A stretch of 36,684 bases of DNA from a virus. Its lineage: Duplodnaviria > Caudoviricetes. A program made the translations under genes and the position numbers. The notes beneath the pieces are model-generated. The model did no database searches. It was not told where the DNA came from and saw only the letters and a program-made list of their open reading frames with translations. Shown one piece after another: positions 175 through 26,442 of this stretch. The number at the start of each line of letters is the position of its first letter. Within the stretch, counting starts at the first letter, position 1. Location: IMG/VR virus record IMGVR_UViG_3300037424_000400, positions 1 through 36,684 of that record; one strand, 5' to 3'.

Positions 175-396
175 CTAAGTTTTGTCGGCCGCGCGGAGTA
201 GTTCGGTCCAGCCTTTACCTATATTTTTGTACCCCGCTGCAGTCAACGCCATGCTGTAGCCGGCACGATTCACGGTGTCGCTTAGGCGTTGTATTCCGGC
301 CAGCAGTTCCTCATCGTTCACATGATCAAGTGGGTAACCCAAGGCTTCGGATGACGCCCTGAAACGCTTGATTGCGTCCTTCATCCCATCGGTCAT
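175..396 (-). CDS. Hypothetical protein
   Basis: 73-aa ORF whose start overlaps the integrase stop (ATGA). Confidence 0.55.
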   Translation of the reverse strand: MTDGMKDAIKRFRASSEALGYPLDHVNDEELLAGIQRLSDTVNRAGYSMALTAAGYKNIGKGWTELLRAADKT

Positions 397-1454
397 TTCT
401 TCCTCTCCGGCAACGCCAGCCGCGCATCGCTCAACCGGTCGCGGTACTGATCCAAATAGCCTTCCGTGGTGGTGACAGACGTATGCACGGCGCGCTTCTG
501 GATCTCGCGCATATCGACGCCCTGGCTCTCAAGCATTGACAGCGCATAGGGCCGCACGTGCCGCGTGGTGATGCCCTTGCAGCCTGCCGCGTCGACGGCG
601 TCGCGCCACACTTCATAGATGCCATTCTTCGTGTACTTGTCGCCGTCCCGCGCCTGGATGATGTACGGGTCGCGGCGCTTGGCGAGCTCTTCGATTTTGC
701 GCTTCGGCCGCAGCGATCGCGCACGCTCGAGGCACGCGCGGATCTCCGGCGTGATGAGCTGATCGACGACTTCGCCGGATGATTCCTCGGTTTTGCTGGG
801 GGCGAAGTGGATGCGGTCGGCACTGATCTGCGACTCGCGCAGCAGGCGGATCTCGGTCGGCCGCTGCTGGGTGAGATACATCAGCTCGAGGAAGCACTGC
901 CCCATGGGCGTGAGCGCGTCGAATAGTTTCCAGTAGCGTTCGGCATTCAACCGGCCGCGCTGCTTGACCGGCTTTTTGAGCTTGATCTCGCGGCAGGGGT
1001 TGACCTCGACGCCGGTCTTGGATTGGTTGAGCACGCACCAGCTGAAAAACGTCGATAGGCGCGCCTTGTACTTGCCCATGGTGTTCTGTTTGCCGATGAA
1101 ATTGTCGTTCAGGAATGTGATCACGTCGCCAGGCTCGACCTGCGCGGCGTCGAAATCGGCGAAGGCTTTGCTGATCACTTCGAACATGCGCTCGTATTCC
1201 TTGCGCACCTCGAACGTCAGCGTCTTGAAGTGGTCGGCCTGGAAATCCTTGATCAGCGCTTTCATGTTGCCGCTGTGGTCCGGCTGTTCGCAGAGCAGCG
1301 CGGCGCGGGCTTTGAGCATCGCGGCCTCGCCTTCGTCGACGCGGGTGAGCTTGTGCCATTTCTGCCTGGGCCGCCTGGTCCGCGGGCTGCGTTCAGCCAG
1401 GTCCTGGACGTAGTAATAGCGGCCGTCGCTTATGTAGACTCGTGTGATCTTCAC
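393..1454 (-). CDS. int: Tyrosine recombinase / phage integrase
   Basis: Catalytic-type motifs: QRPTEI (R), SKT (K), RHVR (HxxR-like), H in AVHTS, Y in TTEGY; adjacent to the tRNA. Confidence 0.93.
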   Translation of the reverse strand: MKITRVYISDGRYYYVQDLAERSPRTRRPRQKWHKLTRVDEGEAAMLKARAALLCEQPDHSGNMKALIKDFQADHFKTLTFEVRKEYERMFEVISKAFADFDAAQVEPGDVITFLNDNFIGKQNTMGKYKARLSTFFSWCVLNQSKTGVEVNPCREIKLKKPVKQRGRLNAERYWKLFDALTPMGQCFLELMYLTQQRPTEIRLLRESQISADRIHFAPSKTEESSGEVVDQLITPEIRACLERARSLRPKRKIEELAKRRDPYIIQARDGDKYTKNGIYEVWRDAVDAAGCKGITTRHVRPYALSMLESQGVDMREIQKRAVHTSVTTTEGYLDQYRDRLSDARLALPERKK

Positions 1455-1978: not shown

Positions 1979-2170
1979 TCATGCGTCGAACCTCTCGGTG
2001 TCCGCCATCCTCGCCCTGGCCCGCAGCTCGCCCACCAGCTGCATGTCGTGCTCGTAATCGGCCTTGGCGGAGTGGTCCGGTGGCTCCAATAGAATCCACC
2101 GGCCGCGCAGGGTGTGCGTGCGCTTGAGGTCGCGCGCGCTGGCCTCGATGATCCGCGCGGCCTTGTACAT
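1979..2170 (-). CDS. Hypothetical protein (5' end possibly clipped by a deletion)
   Basis: MYKAARIIEASARDLKR..., good GC3 codon usage, TGATG overlap with the avd stop. Confidence 0.55.
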   Translation of the reverse strand: MYKAARIIEASARDLKRTHTLRGRWILLEPPDHSAKADYEHDMQLVGELRARARMADTERFDA

Positions 2171-2481
2171 CAGCGCGCGGTCGGGTTGGTGAGCTCGATG
2201 GCCTTGGCGTACTGGCCGGTCGAGATCAACCGTTTGTCGCGCGAGAGCCGGAGCAGCAGCTCGGCGACTTGCAGCCGCTCGATCAGCGTGCCCAGGTGCG
2301 GCGCTTTCTCGCGGGCGACATTGGCGCGGAAGATCAGCACGACGATGTCGACGCACTCGTCCCGGAGCTTGCCGCCGATCGATGCCTTGAAGTCGCGGGG
2401 CATGTTCTTGGCGAGATCCGTGATAATGTCGAGCAGGTCGTAGGCGACCTTGTAAATCGGCAGGTTGGTGTGCAGTGCCAT
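2170..2481 (-). pseudogene. avd: DGR accessory variability determinant (Avd / four-helix-bundle protein), apparently 3'-truncated
   Basis: LPIYKVAYDLL...MPRDFKASIGGKLRDEC...IFRAN...LLRLSRDKRLIS is typical Avd. It ends abruptly at ELTNPTAR, lacking the usual terminal IGKQxxGW helix. Lies directly downstream of DUF1566 genes. Confidence 0.8.
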
Positions 2482-2485
2482 GCTG

Positions 2486-2620
2486 AGAAAAAGGACTAAA
2501 GGACTAAATGATTAATCTGCGGACGGCGCGAGCGCGGAGCTTGATGTCGATGTGGCTGTCGCTCTGGTAGCCGTAGCTGAAACCCTGGTACCAGGCATAG
2601 TCCGGACCGGCTGCGGGCTG
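2486..2620 (-). repeat. DGR variable repeat VR1 with GC-rich 3' element and 8-bp direct repeats
   Basis: Near-identical to 2965-3122 and 8793-8950 except at codon positions 1-2. Confidence 0.85.
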
Positions 2621-2953
2621 CGTGGCGGTCCAGTAGGCTTCCTTGCGGAATTCGCCGGGCAGGTTGTGCAAGAGGATCAGCGCATCCACGCGGGAGGGCA
2701 ATACGCCGCCCTGATCTTTGGCCCAAGCGCCCGCGTCTTTCCAGTTGCCGTTGAATTCGCCCGGAAGCAGGATCAACTCGGCCGGGGCGTTGTCGTCGAT
2801 GGTGAGGCCGGCGTATAGGCCGCCTTGGTACGCCGCACCGAACAGCTGTAGTGCAGATGTGTGGACTGGTGTGGCAGCTGGTGCCGCGCCGTCGTTACCG
2901 GGGATTTCGATGATGATGCGCCCGTCCGGGCGCCGGTCGATTTGCAGTTGCAT
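2504..2953 (-). CDS. DUF1566/Lcl-C (CLec-fold) protein, DGR target 1
   Basis: W...WA...GGVLPSR...YWT...AWYQGF...RARAVRR motif set; 3' variable repeat. Confidence 0.88.
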   Translation of the reverse strand: MQLQIDRRPDGRIIIEIPGNDGAAPAATPVHTSALQLFGAAYQGGLYAGLTIDDNAPAELILLPGEFNGNWKDAGAWAKDQGGVLPSRVDALILLHNLPGEFRKEAYWTATQPAAGPDYAWYQGFSYGYQSDSHIDIKLRARAVRRLII

Positions 2954-2964
2954 AGCGTTCCTTT

Positions 2965-3122
2965 GGCGAAATGGTTGAATGGATGAAGGACTAAATGGCT
3001 ACTCTGCGGACGGCGCGCGCGCGGAGCTTGCCGTAGATGCTGGTGCCGTACTGGTAGCCGTAGCCGAAAATCTGGTACCAGGCATAGTCCGGACTGGCTG
3101 CGTGCTGCTCGCCAGACCAGTA
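2965..3122 (-). repeat. DGR variable repeat VR2 plus 3' flank
   Basis: Aligns without gaps to 8798-8950, including about 20 nt past the stop codon. Confidence 0.85.
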
Positions 3123-3392
3123 CCAGTCGGGCTTGAACTCCTCGGGCAGCGTCCGGCGCAGCGTTGCGAGCTCGACGCGGTCGGGGAGGTCGCCGCCGGA
3201 TTTCTTCGCCCAGGCGAGCTGCTTTTTCCAGGTGGCCGGGCCCATGTCGCCGGGCAGCAGGATGATGTGGTGCAGGCCGGCTTCGGTGGTGACGATCCCG
3301 GCCCAGCGCTCGCCGTCGTTCAGCGTCGGGGGCGTGATGGTGAGCGGGACGGTAAGGGTGAATCTGACGGCTTCGGCTTGCGGTGCGTTCAT
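2991..3392 (-). CDS. DUF1566/Lcl-C (CLec-fold) protein, DGR target 2
   Basis: LNDGERWAGI...HHIILLPG...GGDLPDRVE...WYWSGEQ...AWYQIF...RARAVRR. Confidence 0.9.
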   Translation of the reverse strand: MNAPQAEAVRFTLTVPLTITPPTLNDGERWAGIVTTEAGLHHIILLPGDMGPATWKKQLAWAKKSGGDLPDRVELATLRRTLPEEFKPDWYWSGEQHAASPDYAWYQIFGYGYQYGTSIYGKLRARAVRRVAI

Positions 3393-3421
3393 GTGGGGCT
3401 CCTGGTGATGGTGTAAGGTGG

Positions 3422-5086
3422 TTACTTCTTTGCGGTCTTTTTCTTCGCCGCCAGCTTTTCCTTGGCGGCAGCCGTGAGCTCGGCCCGGATCCCGGCCGCG
3501 TCGACGCCGAGGCGCTTGGCGGTGGCGAGCAGGTCATTGGTGTCTCCGCCGCAGTAGCTCGCGGCGTAGCAGGCGCCGATCAGCGCCATGTCGATGAACA
3601 GCGCGCCCAGGTCGGCATCGGTGAGCGCGGGGATTTTCTTTTCGAAGTCGTGGACGTAGTCGTGCCCCTTGGGCTTTTCGATGCCGTCGGCCGCGTTCCA
3701 GGCATCGACCAGGCGCTTGCGATCGTCGAAGCCGAGCCTGCTGAAAAACGCGGTCGCGACCAGGACGGTGTCGTCGCGATTGAACTGGCGCGCGCGACTC
3801 ATGCCCCGGATCTCGGCCAGGATCTGCGTGTTGATCGCGGTCTCCAGGCGGTTCTTGCGCTCCTGTTCCTTGTTGTTGCTGCTGAAACTGGTGCGCGCAT
3901 CGGGCTTGACGCCGTTCGCTTTGAGCGCAGCCGTCACGTCCACGCGCTTGGCGATTTCGAAGAGCTTGCCGGTGTGCGGGCATTCGAGCAGCGCCGTGGC
4001 GCAGGGCTGCTTGCCGATGGCCTTGCGGTAGCTCTGATATTTGCCGCCGATGTAGGCGTCTTCGGCGAGGTCGACATAGCCCTCGTTGAGCGTGCAGCTG
4101 TACTGGTTCGGCTTGATCTTTTTCGCCGGCGCGCCGCTGATGATCGTCTCGCCCTTGGCCTCGAGCTCGGCGCGCTTGCGCGCCCGGGCGGCCTCTTCCT
4201 TGCGCTTGAGGCAGGGTGGGTCGGTGCAGACGTTTGGATTCTTGATTTCGGTGAAGAGGTCCTTCTGGTTGCCGGTGCGGTTGGGGCAGGCGGTGCACGC
4301 GAGGAAGGTGGTGCAGCCGTCGCGCAGCGTGGCGTCGTTGAGCGCGAAGCCGGCGCCTTTCAGGTCGGCCATGTAGGCCTCCTGGACGTGCTCCTGCACC
4401 TGGCGGAAGGTCAGCGGGCCGTCCTGGTCCCAGTAGAGCTTGCCCTTGCCGGAGAGTTCTTTGAGCAGCTCGCGCTGCGTCTCCGGTCGCGGCAGCCGCG
4501 CAATCAGCAGCGCGACCGAGGCCTCGAATTCGCCGGCATAGAAGGCCTTGCGCGCCTCGGGGCACAGTTCGAGCAGTTTCAGCCGGGCGAACACCTGGCT
4601 GCGGCTTTTGCCGAGCTGCTCCGCGATCTGCTCGACGCTGAGCTTTTTGAGCTTGCGCAGGGCGTCGTAGCCTTCGGCCTCTTCCATTTCGTGCAGGTCG
4701 ACGCGCTGGAGGTTTTCGATCAGCTGCAGCTCGAGCGCCTGCTCGTTGGTGTAGGCGCGGACCATGGCCGGGATCTCGGCGAGGCCGGCCATGCGCGCGG
4801 CCATCCAGCGGCGCTCGCCGGCGACGAGCTCGAAGCCGGCCTTGCCCATCGGGCGCAGCAGCACCGGCTCGGCGACGCCGACCTGGCGGATGCTGGCGGC
4901 GAGCTGCTCCAGGCTCTCTGCGGTGAAGCGCGCGCGGCGCAGGCGCTGGATGTCGCTCGTAGACGGCTCGATATCGGCGAGCGGGACGATGGCATAGGTG
5001 GCGGCGGCGTGCGCGGTCGCGCGGTCCGCGATCTTCGTGGCCGCTGTGCTGACGGCGATTGACATGGCGGTGGCGGGTGCGTTCAT
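3422..5086 (-). CDS. ParB/RepB/Spo0J-family protein (long, PRTRC-ParB-like)
   Basis: LAASIRQVGVAEPVLLRP, FELVAGERRWMAA (GxxR box), IENLQRVDL, HTH, CxxC...C..xxC segment. Confidence 0.9.
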   Translation of the reverse strand: MNAPATAMSIAVSTAATKIADRATAHAAATYAIVPLADIEPSTSDIQRLRRARFTAESLEQLAASIRQVGVAEPVLLRPMGKAGFELVAGERRWMAARMAGLAEIPAMVRAYTNEQALELQLIENLQRVDLHEMEEAEGYDALRKLKKLSVEQIAEQLGKSRSQVFARLKLLELCPEARKAFYAGEFEASVALLIARLPRPETQRELLKELSGKGKLYWDQDGPLTFRQVQEHVQEAYMADLKGAGFALNDATLRDGCTTFLACTACPNRTGNQKDLFTEIKNPNVCTDPPCLKRKEEAARARKRAELEAKGETIISGAPAKKIKPNQYSCTLNEGYVDLAEDAYIGGKYQSYRKAIGKQPCATALLECPHTGKLFEIAKRVDVTAALKANGVKPDARTSFSSNNKEQERKNRLETAINTQILAEIRGMSRARQFNRDDTVLVATAFFSRLGFDDRKRLVDAWNAADGIEKPKGHDYVHDFEKKIPALTDADLGALFIDMALIGACYAASYCGGDTNDLLATAKRLGVDAAGIRAELTAAAKEKLAAKKKTAKK

Positions 5087-5101
5087 GGGGCTCCTTTTGC
5101 G

Positions 5102-6184
5102 TTATAGGTTGGCGGGCATGATGACGGCCTCGCGATCGCCGGCGCCGGCGTCGGTGAGGTAGAGGCTGTCGGTGTTGTATTTGCCCAGGTGCAGATTGAC
5201 GCGCTCGTCGGCGAAGGCCTCCAGCGCGTCGACCAGGTAGTGCCATTGCGCGCCGAGCGAGAGGCTTTTGAACTTGCCGTCCGCGGCGCTCCAGTCGAAG
5301 CGCTCCGACGCGCACTCGCCGCCGGCGTTCGTCGCGCTCAGGGTGATGGCCTGGGCGTCGAAGTCCAGGCGGATGCCCTGGAATTTGTCGGCGTCGAAGA
5401 TTTGTGCGACGCGCTTCACCGCGGCGGCGAAGGCGATGCGCGCGACGCTGCCCGTCGCGGCGCGCGCGCTCGGGGTGACCTTGTCCGCGTCGGGAAACTG
5501 TCCGTCGATCAGCTTGGTCGAGAGCGTTTCGCCGCCGGCGTTGACGATCGCGAGCGAGGTGGCCAGGGTGAGCTCGATCTCTTCGTGGTCGCCGGCGATA
5601 TCGAGGATGCGCGCGATGCTGGCGGCCGGAAAAATCGCCGCGTGTGCGCCGTCGGCGCCGTCGAGCGCAACCCGCGCGCGGTGCAGGCGGTGCCCGTCGG
5701 TCGCGACGAGCGCGATGCGGCCGTGCTCGATCGCCATGTGCATGCCGTTGAGGTAGTAGCGCACGTCCTTGACGGCCATCGCCGGCAGGCAAAAGCGCAG
5801 CGCCTTGATGAACGGCGCGGCGGGCACGGTGAGGCTGTACGCGTCCTCCGGCGGGATATCGAGCCGCGGGAATTCCTCGGGCCCGAGCGCGTTGAGTTCG
5901 TAGCGCGTCGGCCCGGCTGCCAGGAACACGCGCGTGCCCTGCACCTTGAACTCGAGCTCGGCCTCTTCGGGCAGCGCCTTGAGGATGCGCGTGAGGCGCG
6001 CCGCGTGCACGCAGAATATCGCCCCGTCCAGGCCGTCGGGCAGCGTGACCGGGATCTCGATCTGCTGCTCGACATCGCAGGCGACGATGTGATTGCCGCC
6101 GATGCGCACATGCTGCAGGATGGGCAGGGCGCTGTTTCGGCTGGCCACATGCGCGGCGAGCGCGACGGCTTGTCGGATTTTCAT
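5102..6184 (-). CDS. dnaN: DNA polymerase III beta subunit (sliding clamp) homolog, phage-encoded
   Basis: 360 aa; LPILQHV, EEFP, DVRYYLNGM, VATDGHRL, KLIDGQFPD, C-terminal VIMP. Confidence 0.93.
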   Translation of the reverse strand: MKIRQAVALAAHVASRNSALPILQHVRIGGNHIVACDVEQQIEIPVTLPDGLDGAIFCVHAARLTRILKALPEEAELEFKVQGTRVFLAAGPTRYELNALGPEEFPRLDIPPEDAYSLTVPAAPFIKALRFCLPAMAVKDVRYYLNGMHMAIEHGRIALVATDGHRLHRARVALDGADGAHAAIFPAASIARILDIAGDHEEIELTLATSLAIVNAGGETLSTKLIDGQFPDADKVTPSARAATGSVARIAFAAAVKRVAQIFDADKFQGIRLDFDAQAITLSATNAGGECASERFDWSAADGKFKSLSLGAQWHYLVDALEAFADERVNLHLGKYNTDSLYLTDAGAGDREAVIMPANL

Positions 6185-6648
6185 GCGGCCTCGAAATTCG
6201 AAAACATCAGATCGGCGATGTGCTGCGTTTGCGCCGGCGAAAAGATCAGCGGCTCGTCGCCGCCGACCAGGACCATGCGCCGGTCGTCTGTCATGGCAGC
6301 GAGAAAGTCGGTGACGTTCGAGGCGCCGGGCGTCGCGGCCTTGCCGTTCGTGCTGCGCGGGGTGCGCTCGGGCGCGGCCGTTGCGCGCTTTTTGTAGTGC
6401 CGCTTTTTGCCGGTCTTGGGCGGCTTGCTGGCTTTTTCGTGCTCCGGCTTATCGGCGGCGCCGGCCTCCGAGAGGGTCCATTTGCGGTCGCCGGTAGAGC
6501 CGCTCGCGGTGAGCTTGCCGTCGTCGACGAGCTGCTTGAGGTAGTAGCCGGCCATGCCAGGATCGACGCCGCTCGCGCGCGCGATGTCGCCTTTGTTGAG
6601 TGAAACGCTGGGTTTGAATACGTTGAGAATCTGATCGCGCTTTGACAT
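6181..6648 (-). CDS. Winged-helix DNA-binding-like protein
   Basis: N-terminal DIARASGV...YYLKQLVDDGKL...G wHTH pattern and a basic linker. Confidence 0.6.
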   Translation of the reverse strand: MSKRDQILNVFKPSVSLNKGDIARASGVDPGMAGYYLKQLVDDGKLTASGSTGDRKWTLSEAGAADKPEHEKASKPPKTGKKRHYKKRATAAPERTPRSTNGKAATPGASNVTDFLAAMTDDRRMVLVGGDEPLIFSPAQTQHIADLMFSNFEAA

Positions 6649-6667
6649 TGCTGTGCCTCCTGGGTGG

Positions 6668-6928
6668 TTAATCGCGGGTGTCGCGGCCTTTCACGAGCCG
6701 AGGCCTGCCTGGTGCGGGTTCGGCCGGCGCCGGCAACGGGATAAAGCCAGAGCCGTTGGATCCGGTGATCTTCATGAAATCGTTCTCGACCTTGGCCGAG
6801 TTGACGATCACCTGCGCGACGCCGGCGATGGTCCTGGCGCGCTCGATCTCCATCGGCTTGTCTTTGTCCTTGAGCGCTTCGAGCGTCTCAAACAGATGGT
6901 TGCGCAGATCCTCAACTTTGTTTTTCAT
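6668..6928 (-). CDS. Conserved phage hypothetical protein (commonly next to HNH genes)
   Basis: MKNKVEDLRNHLFETLEAL...IERARTIAGVAQVIVNSAKVE pattern. Confidence 0.8.
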   Translation of the reverse strand: MKNKVEDLRNHLFETLEALKDKDKPMEIERARTIAGVAQVIVNSAKVENDFMKITGSNGSGFIPLPAPAEPAPGRPRLVKGRDTRD

Positions 6929-7601
6929 TCCGCTGTCTCCTGTTGATCGCTCGTTTAAGGGCGTCGAGCAGCTGCACCGACTGTTTCAGCTCGGGCGGCA
7001 GGTTGTGCACCGAATTGCGCCGCATGTTGTCGGCGCGGCTGATGAGCTCGAGGTTGGCGAGCTCGACGTTGAGCTGGTCGCCGTCCTTGAAGCGCAGGCA
7101 GTAGCCCTTCGGGATCGGCCCGTGCGCGTCTTCCCACAGGACCAGGTGAAGCATCCGCCAGCCGAGCGCGCCGGGCGCGAAGCTCACGCGCATGTCGATG
7201 TAGCCGTCCGTGTTGATGCGCAGCGCGCCGAGCACGTAGAAGTCGGGATCACGGTTGACGGGAAAGCCGCCCTTTTTGAATTGCGTCTCTGCCATGCGCC
7301 CGGGCGCCCAGCCGGGCCGGCGCAGGCCTTTGTTCGCGGGAACGTGCCCCTTTTGAAACCGGCATGCGGCGCCGATGTTGTCGCCCCGGCGCAACCGGCA
7401 CGCCGCCGGGCTGGCGAGGTACGCCGCGCTTTTGACGATGCCGAGTTTTCGCGCGGTGGCGTAGACCGATGTGACGGAGCGGTTCAACTTCCGCGCGAGC
7501 TGCTTGGTCGGCGCGTCTGGATACAGCGCGCAAAGCTGCACCAGGTCGGCGTCGGACCAGCGCCGGCGCGGGGATGCGTCTTTGCCGCGGCGCCCGCTCA
7601 C
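6912..7601 (-). CDS. HNH endonuclease (HNH_3-like)
   Basis: FQKGHVPANKG, HLVLWEDAHGPIPKG...FKDGD..N....NLELISRADNMRRN; GTG start overlaps upstream stop. Confidence 0.85.
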   Translation of the reverse strand: MSGRRGKDASPRRRWSDADLVQLCALYPDAPTKQLARKLNRSVTSVYATARKLGIVKSAAYLASPAACRLRRGDNIGAACRFQKGHVPANKGLRRPGWAPGRMAETQFKKGGFPVNRDPDFYVLGALRINTDGYIDMRVSFAPGALGWRMLHLVLWEDAHGPIPKGYCLRFKDGDQLNVELANLELISRADNMRRNSVHNLPPELKQSVQLLDALKRAINRRQRNEKQS

Positions 7602-7852
7602 CGCCGTTTCCCGATCCACCGCCGGTGCGCCCACATGCTCGCGACGATCCCCAGGGGCCCGCCGCTCAGGTAGGCCGCGATCTGCGCGAGGTTCGCATCC
7701 GGCACCAGCTTGTAGAGCGCGAGCTGCGAGGCGCCGATGACGAAGCTGGTGAGGAAGGCGGCGACGTAGTGCCCGCCGTTGACGTTGAGCGATTGCAGTC
7801 CGAGCGCGAACACGACGACGAAGGTGGAGCCGAAGAGCGCCAGCTCGATCAT
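7598..7852 (-). CDS. Small multi-pass membrane protein
   Basis: 84 aa with about three hydrophobic segments; ATGA coupling. Confidence 0.7.
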   Translation of the reverse strand: MIELALFGSTFVVVFALGLQSLNVNGGHYVAAFLTSFVIGASQLALYKLVPDANLAQIAAYLSGGPLGIVASMWAHRRWIGKRR

Positions 7853-8085
7853 GCGTCGCCCTTGTGCGGGGTGATGCCGCGCTCGCGCAGCCGGCGCTGG
7901 CGCGCCAGGCCGGCGTTCTGGATGCCCATGCGCAGGTATTTGTCCTGCATCGCCTGCTCGAACGTCATGTGCGGCCGCGTCGGCGCAAAGATGGTTTGCC
8001 ACACCGCGCGCAGCGCCGGATCGGCCTCGGGCGCGATCGCGTCGGGGAGGTCGAGCGGGAGGTCCATGGAAGCAGTGGCGTTCAT
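7849..8085 (-). CDS. Hypothetical protein
   Basis: Coupled ORF in the early operon. Confidence 0.6.
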   Translation of the reverse strand: MNATASMDLPLDLPDAIAPEADPALRAVWQTIFAPTRPHMTFEQAMQDKYLRMGIQNAGLARQRRLRERGITPHKGDA

Positions 8086-8315
8086 GCCATCACCGCTTCG
8101 TCAAGCGCGCCGCTGAGTTCGTCCATGGCGCTGAGTGCTTGTTCGAGGGCATTGATACCCTCCTGCATCTTGTCTCCTTTGTCGCCGGCCTGGAGGCCTT
8201 CTGGCATGTTGTCGTACTTTTCCTGCTCTTCGTCGTGCAGCTCATCGATCTGCTCTCGCAGCGTGTCGAGTTGATTGCAGATTGCGGTGATGCGATTGCG
8301 CTGGAATTTGTTCAT
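8082..8315 (-). CDS. Conserved phage hypothetical acidic helical protein
   Basis: MNKFQRNRI...DEEQEKYDNMPEGLQAGDKGDKMQE; ATGA overlaps on both sides. Confidence 0.75.
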   Translation of the reverse strand: MNKFQRNRITAICNQLDTLREQIDELHDEEQEKYDNMPEGLQAGDKGDKMQEGINALEQALSAMDELSGALDEAVMA

Positions 8316-8563
8316 GCCGCGCACTCCTCGCCATTGACGTGGCGGTGGATCGGCAGCTGGCAGATCCCGCAGGCGTTGACCTCGACCTCGTACGCGGTCG
8401 GCACCCGCTCGCAGCGGCAGGCATCGATCGGATCGCCGCACGCGTCCGCGGTGTAGACCGCGCCGCCGTGGTCCTTCGCATAGGCGCCGGCCAGGCGCGC
8501 GCTGTCGGTGATCGCGCCGGTGATGCTGCCATCGGGCCAGCGCACGCCGTAGCGGGCGCTCAT
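8312..8563 (-). CDS. Hypothetical Cys-rich protein
   Basis: Coupled ORF with CxC and CxxC motifs. Confidence 0.55.
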   Translation of the reverse strand: MSARYGVRWPDGSITGAITDSARLAGAYAKDHGGAVYTADACGDPIDACRCERVPTAYEVEVNACGICQLPIHRHVNGEECAA

Positions 8564-8775
8564 GCCGCCCCCGTCCGATTCGCCCGCACCTTGATGTATT
8601 CGTACCCGTCGCGTTCCTCGATGGCGAAGCGGATCGCCGGCCTGGGCTTCGCCGCCGGCCGGATCGGCACCACGTTGCCGCGGTCCACCTGCAGCGCCGC
8701 CGGCGTGCGCCTGGCGGCCGTGTTGCGGCGCAGGCCGAACGCGAAAAACATCCGCTGTCTAAACGTCTGCATCAT
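8560..8775 (-). CDS. Hypothetical protein
   Basis: GGAGG RBS upstream; coupled to the next gene. Confidence 0.55.
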   Translation of the reverse strand: MMQTFRQRMFFAFGLRRNTAARRTPAALQVDRGNVVPIRPAAKPRPAIRFAIEERDGYEYIKVRANRTGAA

Positions 8776-8792
8776 TGCCTCCCGTCGGTGAA

Positions 8793-8950
8793 GATCGAAT
8801 GGTTGAATGGATGAAGGACTAAATGGCTACTCTGCGGACGGCGCGCGCGCGGAGCTGGTCGTCGATGGTGTGGTCGTCCTGGCCGCCGTAGCCGAAGTGC
8901 TGGTACCAGGCATAGTCCGGATCGGCTGCGTGCTGCTCGCCGGACCAGTA
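8793..8950 (-). repeat. DGR variable repeat VR3 plus 3' flank
   Basis: Gap-free alignment to VR2 and VR1. Confidence 0.85.
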
Positions 8951-9175
8951 CGCAGCCCGCTTGAACTGCTCGGGCGCGTTTGCGAAGAGCAGCGCCTGCT
9001 CGCGCCGCGTGGGCAGCTCGCCACCCTGCGCGATCGCCCAGGCCGTGGCCGCGTGCCAGTCGGCGGCGTCGCATTCGCCGGGCAGCAGAATCACGTGGTG
9101 CGTGGCTTTGCCGTCGGCGACGATGACGCCGGCCCAGCGTTCGCCTTCGTTGAGTGCGGGGATGGTGAGTTGCAT
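8819..9175 (-). CDS. DUF1566/Lcl-C (CLec-fold) protein, remote DGR target 3
   Basis: Start MQLTIPALNEGERWAG after AGGAGG RBS; GGELPTRREQALL, YWSGEQ, AWYQHF, RARAVRR. Confidence 0.9.
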   Translation of the reverse strand: MQLTIPALNEGERWAGVIVADGKATHHVILLPGECDAADWHAATAWAIAQGGELPTRREQALLFANAPEQFKRAAYWSGEQHAADPDYAWYQHFGYGGQDDHTIDDQLRARAVRRVAI

Positions 9176-9902: not shown

Positions 9903-9942
9903 AGAATAGCAAGAAAAACTTGCCGACGCAAGTAAAACTTGC
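9903..9942 (-). promoter_or_regulatory. PL-like promoter with two repressor operators
   Basis: Minus strand TTGCGT-17 nt-TATTCT; palindromes GCAAGAAAAACTTGC (9909-9923) and GCAAGTAAAACTTGC (9928-9942). Confidence 0.8.
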
Positions 9943-9998: not shown

Positions 9999-10475
9999 TC
10001 AAAGTGCATGCACGGCATATTTCATGTCATTCAACTGCGTCAAACAATGGCGATTCCAAACTGCGGCTTTTTGTGAGGCGGTGCCCTTAGCTACGACGAC
10101 GATCTCTTTGTTCATTCCTCCGAAGCCGTTCTGGGCGCGATAGCCAAGACAAATCACGGAGGCATCGTCGTTCGCGAGAACGGTGTCCCATTTGACAGAT
10201 TCTGGATTCCTGGCGGCGTCGATAACAATTTGCATCGCGGCGACAACGCGCTGGAATGCCGCCTCTTTCTTTGCTTCCGCGGCCACCTGCTCCGGGCTCT
10301 TGGCGACTTGAACAGAAGTCGGGCTGTTGCACTGGTACACCGCGAGACCAAGGACGCCTGCGAATACGATTCCTAAAACACCGACTTTCTTTGGCCGTTT
10401 GAAACCACAGTGCGGACAGGCTGCGACGCTGTCGCTGTGCTCTTTTCCGCATTCGCCGCATTTTAAAAGCGCCAC
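9999..10475 (-). CDS. Zinc-ribbon, single-TM protein downstream of the repressor (lysogeny-expressed accessory gene)
   Basis: CGECG...CPHCG, then a hydrophobic helix and an extracytoplasmic domain; occupies the lambda rex position. Confidence 0.8.
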   Translation of the reverse strand: MALLKCGECGKEHSDSVAACPHCGFKRPKKVGVLGIVFAGVLGLAVYQCNSPTSVQVAKSPEQVAAEAKKEAAFQRVVAAMQIVIDAARNPESVKWDTVLANDDASVICLGYRAQNGFGGMNKEIVVVAKGTASQKAAVWNRHCLTQLNDMKYAVHAL

Positions 10476-10498: not shown

Positions 10499-11050
10499 CT
10501 AGTCGTCCAAATAATCGCCCATTGCCGAGCCTAGATCACGCTCGCCGTTGTGTTTCTTTTTCGGATGCTTATTGCCCGGCGGCGCTGGCGTCACACCGAA
10601 TGCAGCCTCGATCTGTGCGTTGCTCACGCCGCGAAGCGGTTGCTGTCCAAGCTCCTTGCGAGTGATTTCATTGGCGCGATATAGCGCGTGCATCTCGTCG
10701 ATCAGTTCTCGCCGCTGCAGCTTGAACAGGCCAGCGAAGAGGTGCAGCAAAATCTCTTCCTGCGCCGTCGGCACCGTTGGCGTTTTTAATTGATAGCTGG
10801 CTGTCGATTGGTGCAGGGTGGACATCTTGCCGCCATATTCGATGTATGACTCGTCAATGTTAAACACGACGGCCAGGGCCTTTCGAACTGGCTTGCCTGG
10901 CAAGTTGGCGTCGGTCTCATATAGGCGAACGGCTTCGCCAGAGTAGGGCTTAGCGCGACCGGCCGCGGCGGCAAGGCGCCTGCCGAGCTCCGGGCGGCTC
11001 CAGCCCTTGATCTTGCGCAGGTTTGCGATTCGCTTTCCGGGTGTCGTCAT
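10499..11050 (-). CDS. CI-like XRE-family HTH repressor
   Basis: GKRIANLRKIKGWSRPELGRR...VRLYE...ALAVVFNIDESYIEYG; divergent from cro; likely leaderless ATG at 11050. Confidence 0.85.
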   Translation of the reverse strand: MTTPGKRIANLRKIKGWSRPELGRRLAAAAGRAKPYSGEAVRLYETDANLPGKPVRKALAVVFNIDESYIEYGGKMSTLHQSTASYQLKTPTVPTAQEEILLHLFAGLFKLQRRELIDEMHALYRANEITRKELGQQPLRGVSNAQIEAAFGVTPAPPGNKHPKKKHNGERDLGSAMGDYLDD

Positions 11051-11057
11051 AGAGGAA

Positions 11058-11131
11058 AGGCTACAAGTTTTGCTTGCACGGTGCACGTTTTCCAAGTATT
11101 GCTTGCGAGCGCAAGAAATACTTGCTATATT
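11058..11131. promoter_or_regulatory. OR region: three operators with PR and PRM
   Basis: ACAAGTTTTGCTTGC (11063-77), CCAAGTATTGCTTGC (11092-106), GCAAGAAATACTTGC (11111-25); PR TTGCGA-17-TATATT; PRM -10 TAGCCT on the minus strand. Confidence 0.8.
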
Positions 11132-11138
11132 GGCCGTC

Positions 11139-11378
11139 ATGGACTCCACCGAAAACCCAATCGCGCTCCGGCTCGTCGCTCATTTCGGCGGACGCGCGGG
11201 CGCGGCGAAGCGGCTCGGTCGCTCGGCCGAGACCATTCGGCTTTGGTTGGAGAATGGCGTCCCGCTAAGCCAGTCAATCGACGTGGAGCACAAGAGCGGC
11301 GGCGTCGTGACTGCTGAGGAAATCCTGCAGGACGCGAAGCGTGCAAAAGCTGGCGAGGTACCAAAAATCGCGGCATGA
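11139..11378 (+). CDS. Cro-like (YdaS-type) regulator
   Basis: LVAHFGGRAGAAKRLGRSAETIRLW...GVP...IDVEHKSGGVVTAEEI. Confidence 0.85.
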   Translation: MDSTENPIALRLVAHFGGRAGAAKRLGRSAETIRLWLENGVPLSQSIDVEHKSGGVVTAEEILQDAKRAKAGEVPKIAA

Positions 11379-20428: not shown

Positions 20429-21412
20429 ATGGCAGAGATAAGCACCCAACGGTCGATCGATTCTTTAATCCGCGATTTTGCGCGGCGCGTGTCGGAACGC
20501 GCGACGCTACCCGTGGTGCACAAAGCGTTTTCCGATAGTCCATTGGGCGCGCTCGCCCTGACACCGGTTGCGCCCCCTCCCGAGAAACAGGAAGCGCCGA
20601 TTATTACGCGCGCTGAAGCGGTACGGGCTGACATCATTTTTCAGGCAGCCGCCCAGACAGCGTTTAAGCGAGTGCTAAAGGCAGAACCGAACGGAACGCT
20701 GCTCGGCAAAAAAGCAGTCGAAATATGCCAGACAGCCTTCAATTCCGCGATAAAAATGCATTGCGGAAAAATTCTCGCTGCGGCGAAGGTGAAGCCCGGA
20801 GCATTTAACTCAATCATGGAGCAAAAAGCAAAAGCCAAACTGGCCCGGAAAGAACTCGCCGCCGAACTCCGTTCCGGTAGAAAGCGATTGAGCAATTTGC
20901 AGTGGAAGATTGCCCATGCCGATGATGTCGCGGAACGCCTGGTTGAGGCACGAAGGCGCGAGAAGGTAAAGGGTGCGCGCGAACAGTTGGCAAACGCTCT
21001 TGTATCGGCGCGGGCTAGACTAAAGGCGCTTAGAAATAGTTTTGATAGCGACTCCCACACTCTGGTCGGTTATGCGAGGTCGGCTATGAATGATGTGATT
21101 ATCGCTGGCAGCCAATATCCAGAAATTCCACTTCCCACGTTTAAGCCGACTCCAAACGCCAGTGGTTTGCCATCCGCGCCTGGTATTTACTTTCTATGGG
21201 TTGACGATGTGGTCGAGTACGTTGGTCAATCGATACGCCTTTGTGACCGTCTCCGATTGGGGATGCATCACGTTCTTAATGAGAGGCATCGGATATCAGT
21301 GGTTTTCGTGGATCGGAAGGAATTGACATGGGCTGAGTGCTACTACATCGGGGCGCTTAGGCCACATAGAAACTTCGGTGCAAGTGCATCACATTACGAA
21401 CCACCCGATTAG
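20429..21412 (+). CDS. Moron: coiled-coil protein with C-terminal GIY-YIG nuclease-like domain
   Basis: PSAPGIYFL...EYVGQSIRLCDRL...E...P..N; visibly AT-richer than its flanks. Confidence 0.75.
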   Translation: MAEISTQRSIDSLIRDFARRVSERATLPVVHKAFSDSPLGALALTPVAPPPEKQEAPIITRAEAVRADIIFQAAAQTAFKRVLKAEPNGTLLGKKAVEICQTAFNSAIKMHCGKILAAAKVKPGAFNSIMEQKAKAKLARKELAAELRSGRKRLSNLQWKIAHADDVAERLVEARRREKVKGAREQLANALVSARARLKALRNSFDSDSHTLVGYARSAMNDVIIAGSQYPEIPLPTFKPTPNASGLPSAPGIYFLWVDDVVEYVGQSIRLCDRLRLGMHHVLNERHRISVVFVDRKELTWAECYYIGALRPHRNFGASASHYEPPD

Positions 21413-21744: not shown

Positions 21745-21788
21745 CCTGTCTCACTTGCCTTAACTTGAGACAGCCGCGCGGCTAAGGT
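21745..21788 (+). promoter_or_regulatory. Activator-dependent late promoter 1
   Basis: CTGTCTCA-N12-TGAGACAG dyad, then TAAGGT -10; 33-bp exact copy at 26315. Confidence 0.7.
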
Positions 21789-21827
21789 GCAAGGGAGTGC
21801 GACCCCCCCCACCCGGAGCCCTTGCAG

Positions 21828-26314: not shown

Positions 26315-26358
26315 CCTGTCTCACTTGCCTTAACTTGAGACAGCCGCCTGCGTAATCT
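26315..26358 (+). promoter_or_regulatory. Activator-dependent late promoter 2
   Basis: Exact 33-bp repeat of 21745-21777, TAATCT -10 at identical spacing. Confidence 0.7.
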
Positions 26359-26442
26359 GCATTTGTCCACTGCGGAGCGCATCTACACAGTTTGGAAATC
26401 CGGTCCGCGCCGTGGCGTTATTTCACTGAAAAAGGCTGAGCC

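Follow-up and report, generated by a model that had tools for sequence, protein, structure and literature searches.

The window analysed here is the whole of the IMG/VR virus record IMGVR_UViG_3300037424_000400 (Duplodnaviria; Caudoviricetes; 36,684 nucleotides), which is linear and has a completeness of 91%. Its minus strand carries three short genes that encode stand-alone C-type lectin (CLec) proteins: target 1 (2504..2953; 149 amino acids (aa), Lcl_C-like), which adjoins an avd gene (2170..2481), target 2 (2991..3392; 133 aa), and target 3 (8819..9175; 118 aa), located about 6.3 kb upstream of avd and near the start of a leftward operon. In a diversity-generating retroelement (DGR), a reverse transcriptase (RT) and the Avd protein copy an RNA that contains a template repeat (TR), misread its adenines, and overwrite each variable repeat (VR). 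A first, sequence-only reading of this DNA had proposed a multi-target DGR that diversifies the three proteins. The DGR origin and the three targets were borne out, but the element is not a working one, given that the TR, the RT, and the end of avd have been deleted.

As had been claimed, the 3′ ends of the three target genes align with one another without gaps, and a 105-nt VR lies in each of them on the minus strand (VR1, 2516..2620; VR2, 3003..3107; VR3, 8831..8935). The variable codons are exactly the eleven that had been listed; besides these, the same 105 nt hold the differences CCC/CAC/CAC, upstream, and GCT/GCG/GCG, at the GC-rich end. Of the 21 variable columns, codon positions 1, 2, and 3 account for 10, 9, and 2, respectively, so that 19 of the 21 changes fall at the first two positions and the third base is nearly fixed. 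Elsewhere in the window, the best similarity to the VR2 core did not exceed 52 matches of 111.

The adenine specificity of these changes was evaluated using as proxies the templates of two close relatives, L120 and L121, which were recovered by a metagenome search with target 1; L120 is the closest relative found, and its TR is located at L120:1290-1394. Compared with this template, the three VRs carry mismatches at 42 of 105 adenines and at 4 of 210 other bases (Fisher p = 7e-19), with 14 adenine mismatches in each VR and one, two, and one non-adenine mismatches in VR1, VR2, and VR3, respectively. With the L121 template the counts were 39 of 102 and 14 of 213. Ambiguous letters aside, the L120 TR differs at one fixed position from the template that the sequence-only reading had deduced. 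An exact degenerate VR/TR pattern gave no matches in viral contigs. We observed that VR1 and VR2 have a T at one non-adenine position (about 2582 and 3069) where VR3 and the templates of both relatives have a C; judging from this base, the lost template may have changed after the last rewriting of VR3. In L120, a VR-type array and a second avd start directly follow the TR (L120:1394-1482), which is why the 3′ end of L120 may be chimeric; this stretch may represent a chimeric assembly or a real duplication.

The gene at 2170..2481 (minus strand) matches the Avd family (PHROG 3206, E 7e-28; Pfam bAvd, E 1e-7, below the curated cut-off), in agreement with the earlier proposal of an adjacent avd; what that proposal missed is that the gene is cut short at 2185. 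It retains 99 homologous codons, followed by 4 foreign codons and a stop, while in the relatives Avd is mostly 116–124 aa long and its gene is followed by the RT-15 RNA, the TR, and the RT. The DNA of the window avd is 93–94% identical to that of L120 and L121 up to 2185 and unrelated beyond this point. On the other side of this deletion junction (2184..2185) lies the remnant of a small downstream gene (1979..2184, minus strand), which is devoid of an N-terminal segment present in four of four homologues; no confirmed loci were obtained in viral contigs for this gene or its homologue P0002. By sequence, the full Avd of a relative had no match to a solved structure.

The elements expected downstream of avd are missing from the record. 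We found no RVT_1 match, and tblastn with the RT of a relative returned nothing better than E 0.25. No TR was uncovered in the record: only the three repeat copies were found, with no fourth. Likewise, the RT-15 RNA was not detected in the window, and it was detected in five of five relatives scanned. In the relatives, the RT ends about 1.74 kb past the avd start, so a minimum of about 1.4 kb has been deleted. In run X1, an unbranched contig of 2,899 bases crosses the junction without differences, and no alternative contig with at least 90% identity was found at the junction in this run, of which about 73% was covered; runs X2 and X3, whose shares are small, yielded fragments of relatives only. 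As judged from its sequence, then, the DGR of the window is defective and fails as a functional element. Both genes that flank the junction are cut. The element is almost certainly the relic of a real DGR, and since the deletion took the template and the reverse transcriptase, the three variants are very probably frozen now.

The relatives of this cassette indicate what was lost. With the Avd protein as the query, 248 viral relatives were recovered and the 80 best of them were retained, and a partial genome scan added 36 genome loci, mostly from Betaproteobacteria according to their titles; a search for loci through a single protein contributed 4 loci, 3 of them distant. RT retention was surveyed at the 109 loci with at least 1.9 kb of downstream DNA, after excluding 7 that end too soon. 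The sequence-only reading had pointed to related cassettes with neither RT nor TR as the observation that would speak against it; instead, a full RT lies behind avd at 99 of the 109 loci (70/75 viral and 29/34 genomic), and the close relative L121 has both a TR and an RT after avd. At the 10 loci where the RT is lost or broken, 8 retain open target frames and the other 2, one of which is a distant avd, show no target. Natural deletions in the same cassette were also observed: in L090 and L114, avd is fused in frame to the remaining RT, and in L117 avd is cut early. In addition, a second RT, encoded on the opposite strand, is present in L076.

A TR could be anchored in 73 of the 80 viral loci, at which the number of targets was zero (1 locus), one (16), two (51), three (4), or four (1). 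When only the viral loci with 7 kb of upstream DNA are considered, 40 of 45 have at least two targets. The genome loci exhibited a similar arrangement: the TR was anchored in 24 of 36, and 22 of these 24 have two or three targets, two of these loci being copies. In 113 distinct viral VR/TR pairs, mismatches occur at 1240 of 2869 adenines and at 26 of 5606 other positions; these VRs were selected at a non-adenine mismatch of at most 15%, a threshold far above the observed 0.5%. At the 24 genome loci the corresponding values were 616 of 1421 and 11 of 2779. In the loci L078 to L080, a remote target is found about 6.3 kb upstream of avd, on the strand opposite to the DGR.

The DNA that follows the VRs does not form a GC-rich hairpin; the 60 nt past the VR ends in the window fold at −2.0, −0.7, and −1.4 kcal/mol, and the mean of the family is −2.6. 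This DNA is AT-rich and has an 8-base period, with an autocorrelation of 0.48 compared with 0.29 for shuffled sequences. In the window, such arrays are located on the minus strand after VR1 (2491..2509), VR2 (2970..2996), and VR3 (8798..8824); the last two are identical, and the VR2 array is conserved in L120. A pattern of two array units, which was defined after inspecting the data, follows 103 of 106 VRs and none of 60 TRs, and it arises in 6.5% of shuffles. The genome loci were not used to define the pattern, and at these it was found behind 51 of 56 VRs and none of 24 TRs. A stricter version of the pattern occurs in the window solely behind the three VRs. These observations suggest that the array acts as the signal that marks a recipient, and it is a concrete candidate for discriminating target from template in the DGRs devoid of a hairpin (about two thirds, according to the portion of PMC5758913 that is accessible). 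The alternative that the array supplies stop codons in the three frames was discarded, given that many units contain no stop. As a separate observation, a contig of run X1 returns from 8797 to 8762 by way of a palindromic stretch of 37 bases. This stretch at the 8762-8797 junction resembles a CRISPR repeat, and the contig may represent an array whose spacers are directed at the DNA immediately past VR3; such an array could indicate the host.

The assignment of the targets to the CLec/DUF1566 class was upheld, with a qualification regarding the scores. All three match Lcl_C (PF07603, formerly DUF1566) with E values from 3e-3 to 6e-5, below the curated cut-off. The predicted model of target 3 has a mean confidence (pLDDT) of 96.5, and its closest solved fold is the C-terminal domain of Legionella Lcl (TM 0.73, E 1e-4), which is also its top sequence match. 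The VRs are C-terminal within a CLec fold, a fold that is confirmed for target 3 at the level of the predicted model. The variable codons map to the final strands and loops of this model, and by analogy with the family, the variable residues would form a single pocket. A homotrimer prediction for target 3 scored 0.06 against a mark of 0.42, and we take this as evidence neither way.

Neither tail nor signal features were found in these proteins, as the sequence-only reading had stated. In the three window targets, no 19-residue stretch exceeds a hydropathy of 0.94; among 107 family members, 7 have a mildly hydrophobic N-terminal stretch and 1 a lipobox-like match. In 98 of the 107, the sequence outside the last 40 aa contains no more than one Cys. 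The 104 distinct targets of the relatives are 105–217 aa long, and the 29 of them that were scanned matched Lcl_C only, apart from weak matches below the cut-off. There are also 27 longer homologues of up to 367 aa, some of which resemble tandem fusions; none of these matched a tail family, and no fibre or stalk part was detected in the 104 targets or the 27 longer homologues. A target such as Mtd lies in a tail module and has a fibre or anchoring domain, and what we observed are proteins of 118–149 aa in an early operon. The PADLOC defence models gave no match, PADLOC being a library of defence and not of anti-defence systems. A fusion with a sliding clamp, suspected in P0024, was unsupported on checking.

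The scaffold of target 1 shows a ratio of nonsynonymous to synonymous substitutions (dN/dS) of 0.09 and 0.17 when compared with L120 and L121, respectively, values that mostly reflect the time before the deletion. All three targets have good ribosome-binding sites. A quick tree of the target scaffolds was mostly unresolved, with the window rows as long branches, and it was not used. The 1016 diversified codons encode Tyr, Asp, Ser, Asn, or Gly in 72% of cases, and Cys was seen 4 times when 61 were expected from base frequencies. This composition resembles that of antibody paratopes and fits a selection for a binding surface, but a bias of the RT may contribute to it. The alignment of target 1 with L120:1-736 revealed that the N-termini differ and that the lectin domain and its flanks are conserved, from which the N-termini appear to have been swapped between phages.

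The position of the targets in an early operon, already proposed, is supported by operator-like palindromes and by a same-strand run of genes that reaches the integrase. The gene order of the record is tRNA-Pro (50-126), the adjoining integrase (393..1454, minus strand), the leftward operon, a divergent pair of regulators, and then replication, head, and tail genes. The leftward operon consists of tightly packed genes with gaps of at most 43 nt (a few of the gene starts used to calculate them are estimates), and the integrase terminates the same operon that contains the targets. The regulator pair comprises a likely repressor gene (10499..11050, minus strand), with a weak match to transcriptional regulators, and a divergent cro-like gene (11140-11378). 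The palindrome CAAG-N5-CTTG occurs 5 times in the window against 0.38 expected: two copies form a likely left operator at the head of the leftward operon (9910..9941), and three form a likely right operator between the divergent regulator genes (11064..11124). This placement supports the control of the leftward operon by the putative repressor, whose own match is weak.

We also surveyed the neighbours of the cassette. Within 6.5 kb of avd, 263 clusters were identified, and the 75 that occur in at least 3 distinct loci were scanned. None of these 75 recurring families had a tail or head protein as its best match, and a separate scan of 35 of 61 neighbour clusters had the same outcome. The best matches were ParB, integrases, repressors, recombination and single-stranded DNA-binding proteins, methylases, Mu transposase, and Gam, together with many unknowns; no recurring effector was found among the 75 families. 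These neighbours indicate that the cassette occupies the early regions of integrase-type and Mu-like phages.

The three-target architecture is already published. In Table S1 of Wu et al. 2018 (PMC5758913, accessible in part), elements of the order TG-TG-AVD-TR-RT with CLec2/DUF1566 targets are listed for hosts that include Burkholderia cenocepacia H111, B. thailandensis MSMB43, and Pseudomonas GM67, GM18, and NZI7. We assign the window to this class by two features, its DUF1566 match and the shared layout: in both, two tandem short DUF1566 targets precede avd, and in at least five rows of the table a third, non-adjacent target is located 3–10 kb away. The listed elements belong to Beta- and Gammaproteobacteria, and their stem-loop is often weak or absent, as in the window. 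The same source reports that about half of the targets of this class consist of DUF1566 alone and that 34% of DGRs have an inverted repeat; its accessible portion proposes neither an early-operon placement in phages nor a function for these elements. Unlike them, the window has lost its TR and RT and has a cut avd, and it is therefore a defective derivative.

The avd gene is carried by twelve GenBank phage records. In one of these, the temperate Burkholderia phage Magia (NC_070954), a remote target after the immunity region, two tandem targets, avd, and a downstream integrase are arranged as in the window; in contrast, its DGR is intact, and its Avd is 63% identical to that of the window. All three VRs of Magia show mismatches at 0 of 49 non-adenine positions when compared with the Magia TR. 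Its authors singled out the short genes 47 and 57 as potential targets, with a suggested role in adaptation or host range (PMC7883833). In the element of Bordetella phage BPP-1 (mtd-avd-TR-brt), as in the window, the adenine changes fall at codon positions 1 and 2, the C-terminal VR is of the CLec type and has a GC-rich end, and avd is present. The BPP-1 element differs in having one tail-fibre target and a GC-rich hairpin after its initiation of mutagenic homing (IMH) sequence, a hairpin defined by Guo et al. (PMC3240598, as far as that text is accessible), whereas the window has three early-operon targets of 118–149 aa and an AT-rich array of 8-base period without a stable hairpin. According to the accessible part of Roux et al. 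(PMC8144416), viral DGR targets are mostly tail proteins. In the accessible part of Dore et al. 2024 (PMC10907252), cytoplasmic hypervariable sensors are proposed as DGR targets in the conflict systems of multicellular bacteria; like those of the window, these are short, CLec-only, and predicted to be cytoplasmic, but they are encoded by cells, next to genes for ATPases and effectors, whereas ours are phage-borne and without a recurring effector neighbour. The accessible portions of PMC11661182, PMC10053308, and PMC12860723 contributed no specific information, and the main text of the last makes no mention of DGRs. In the literature that we searched, which left outside most subscription papers and the supplements of PMC8144416 (possibly on this target cluster), we found no experiment on what these targets do, no report that they lie in an early operon, and no account of the array.

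Taken as a whole, we favour the reading that the window, from a temperate phage, holds the remnant of a three-target DGR within its leftward early operon, with frozen variants that would act as soluble hypervariable binders in the infected cell, and we assign to it a probability of about 0.58. That the targets are intracellular binders, considered separately, we regard as slightly better than an even bet. In the proposed mechanism, the 8-base-period array behind each VR would have replaced the hairpin of BPP-1 in designating that VR as a recipient, and would in this way have let one template serve targets located 0.03, 0.5, and 6.3 kb upstream of avd. The target proteins would be produced on infection or induction and would bind a host protein through their variable strands and loops, most likely a sensor or effector of defence or another host regulator. 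Phage DGRs are usually read as host-range switches of tail fibres; this class diversifies two to four tiny stand-alone lectin folds in the early region, so its purpose is probably a different one, which could be examined in cultured phages such as Magia. The window itself provides a clean natural knockout, a probably frozen copy of the published layout. More tentatively, it is possible that a widespread clade of proteobacterial temperate phages, with integrase-type and Mu-like members, maintains an early, DGR-run repertoire of tiny soluble antibody-like binders directed against host defence proteins, addressed by the array and independent of a hairpin, and that lineages such as that of the window delete the mutator and thereby keep a selected set fixed.

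Several points weigh against the favoured reading. The closest solved fold, that of Legionella Lcl, is a surface adhesin domain, and further structural look-alikes are long adhesin- or collagen-like proteins. Three of the 75 neighbour families are of the lysis class, 16 had no match and many others are of unknown function, and the selection of neighbours favoured open reading frames on the same strand. A promoter scan found no sigma-70-like consensus at the left operator. The linear record, 91% complete, ends in the tail module, and the missing part may hold the RT and TR or a tail-linked role. The template used in the adenine test belongs to L120, which itself looks chimeric or duplicated just 3′ of its TR. 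Finally, run X1 may be the source sample of the record, so its contig argues against a mis-join yet lacks independence.

The nearest solved fold is also what lends weight to the idea that the targets, though made early, function beyond the cytoplasm, either as small separate adhesins that join the virion or after their release at lysis, with the DGR tuning host range. The prevalence of tail proteins among known phage DGR targets (PMC8144416, accessible part) and the host-range option offered by the authors of Magia (PMC7883833) point in the same direction. However, no tail or head protein was the best match of any of the 75 neighbour families, in Magia about 11 kb separate avd from the tail fibre, which is encoded on the opposite strand, and neither the 104 targets nor the 27 longer homologues contain a fibre or stalk part; we therefore consider this explanation unlikely. 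A neutral or largely selfish passenger of a recombination-rich early region, whose targets do little, would account for the loss or breakage of the RT at 10 of 109 loci, the free exchange of target N-termini among relatives, and the lack of a phenotype in the published literature. It fits poorly with the scaffold dN/dS of 0.09–0.17, the good ribosome-binding sites of the three targets, the open target frames at 8 of the 10 loci without a full RT (no target was seen at the remaining two), and the depletion of Cys at the variable positions (4 against 61 expected, with a possible contribution of RT bias), and we hold it to be very improbable.

The defective state of the element can also be questioned. 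The three VRs could still be undergoing diversification, with the RT and TR supplied by the missing portion of the phage or, in trans, by another prophage of the same host: the completeness of the record is 91%, the arrays are intact, as are the ends of the VRs, activity in trans has been discussed for other DGRs (PMC10907252 and PMC5758913, in their accessible parts), and a different avd is present in run X1. Nevertheless, the RT is directly behind avd at 99 of the 109 loci with enough downstream DNA, both genes that flank the junction are cut, and no differences appear in the contig that covers VR1, with the reservation that rare variants are lost from contigs; ongoing diversification thus seems rather improbable. 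As for an assembly collapse at the repeats that would hide an intact DGR, such repeats do confuse assemblers, and L120 shows a join of this kind; but the junction is inside avd and outside any repeat, and the unbranched 2,899-base contig of run X1 crosses it with no competing contig in the portion covered. This last explanation is extremely unlikely.

Other features of the record were noted. The early operon encodes a full-length phage sliding clamp (5102-6184) with all three DNA_pol3_beta domains, adjoining a ParB-like protein of 554 aa. Between the repressor gene and the left operator there is a zinc-ribbon protein with a hydrophobic stretch (9999-10475), for which expression as a membrane protein in the lysogen is possible. 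A gene of 327 aa (20429-21412), located between the terminase-like and portal-like genes, had no Pfam or PADLOC match. Finally, a 47-nt direct repeat with internal symmetry, whose copies are 87% identical, is present at 21745-21791, preceding the block of head genes, and 4.6 kb further on at 26315-26361; it is possibly a late regulatory or packaging site.

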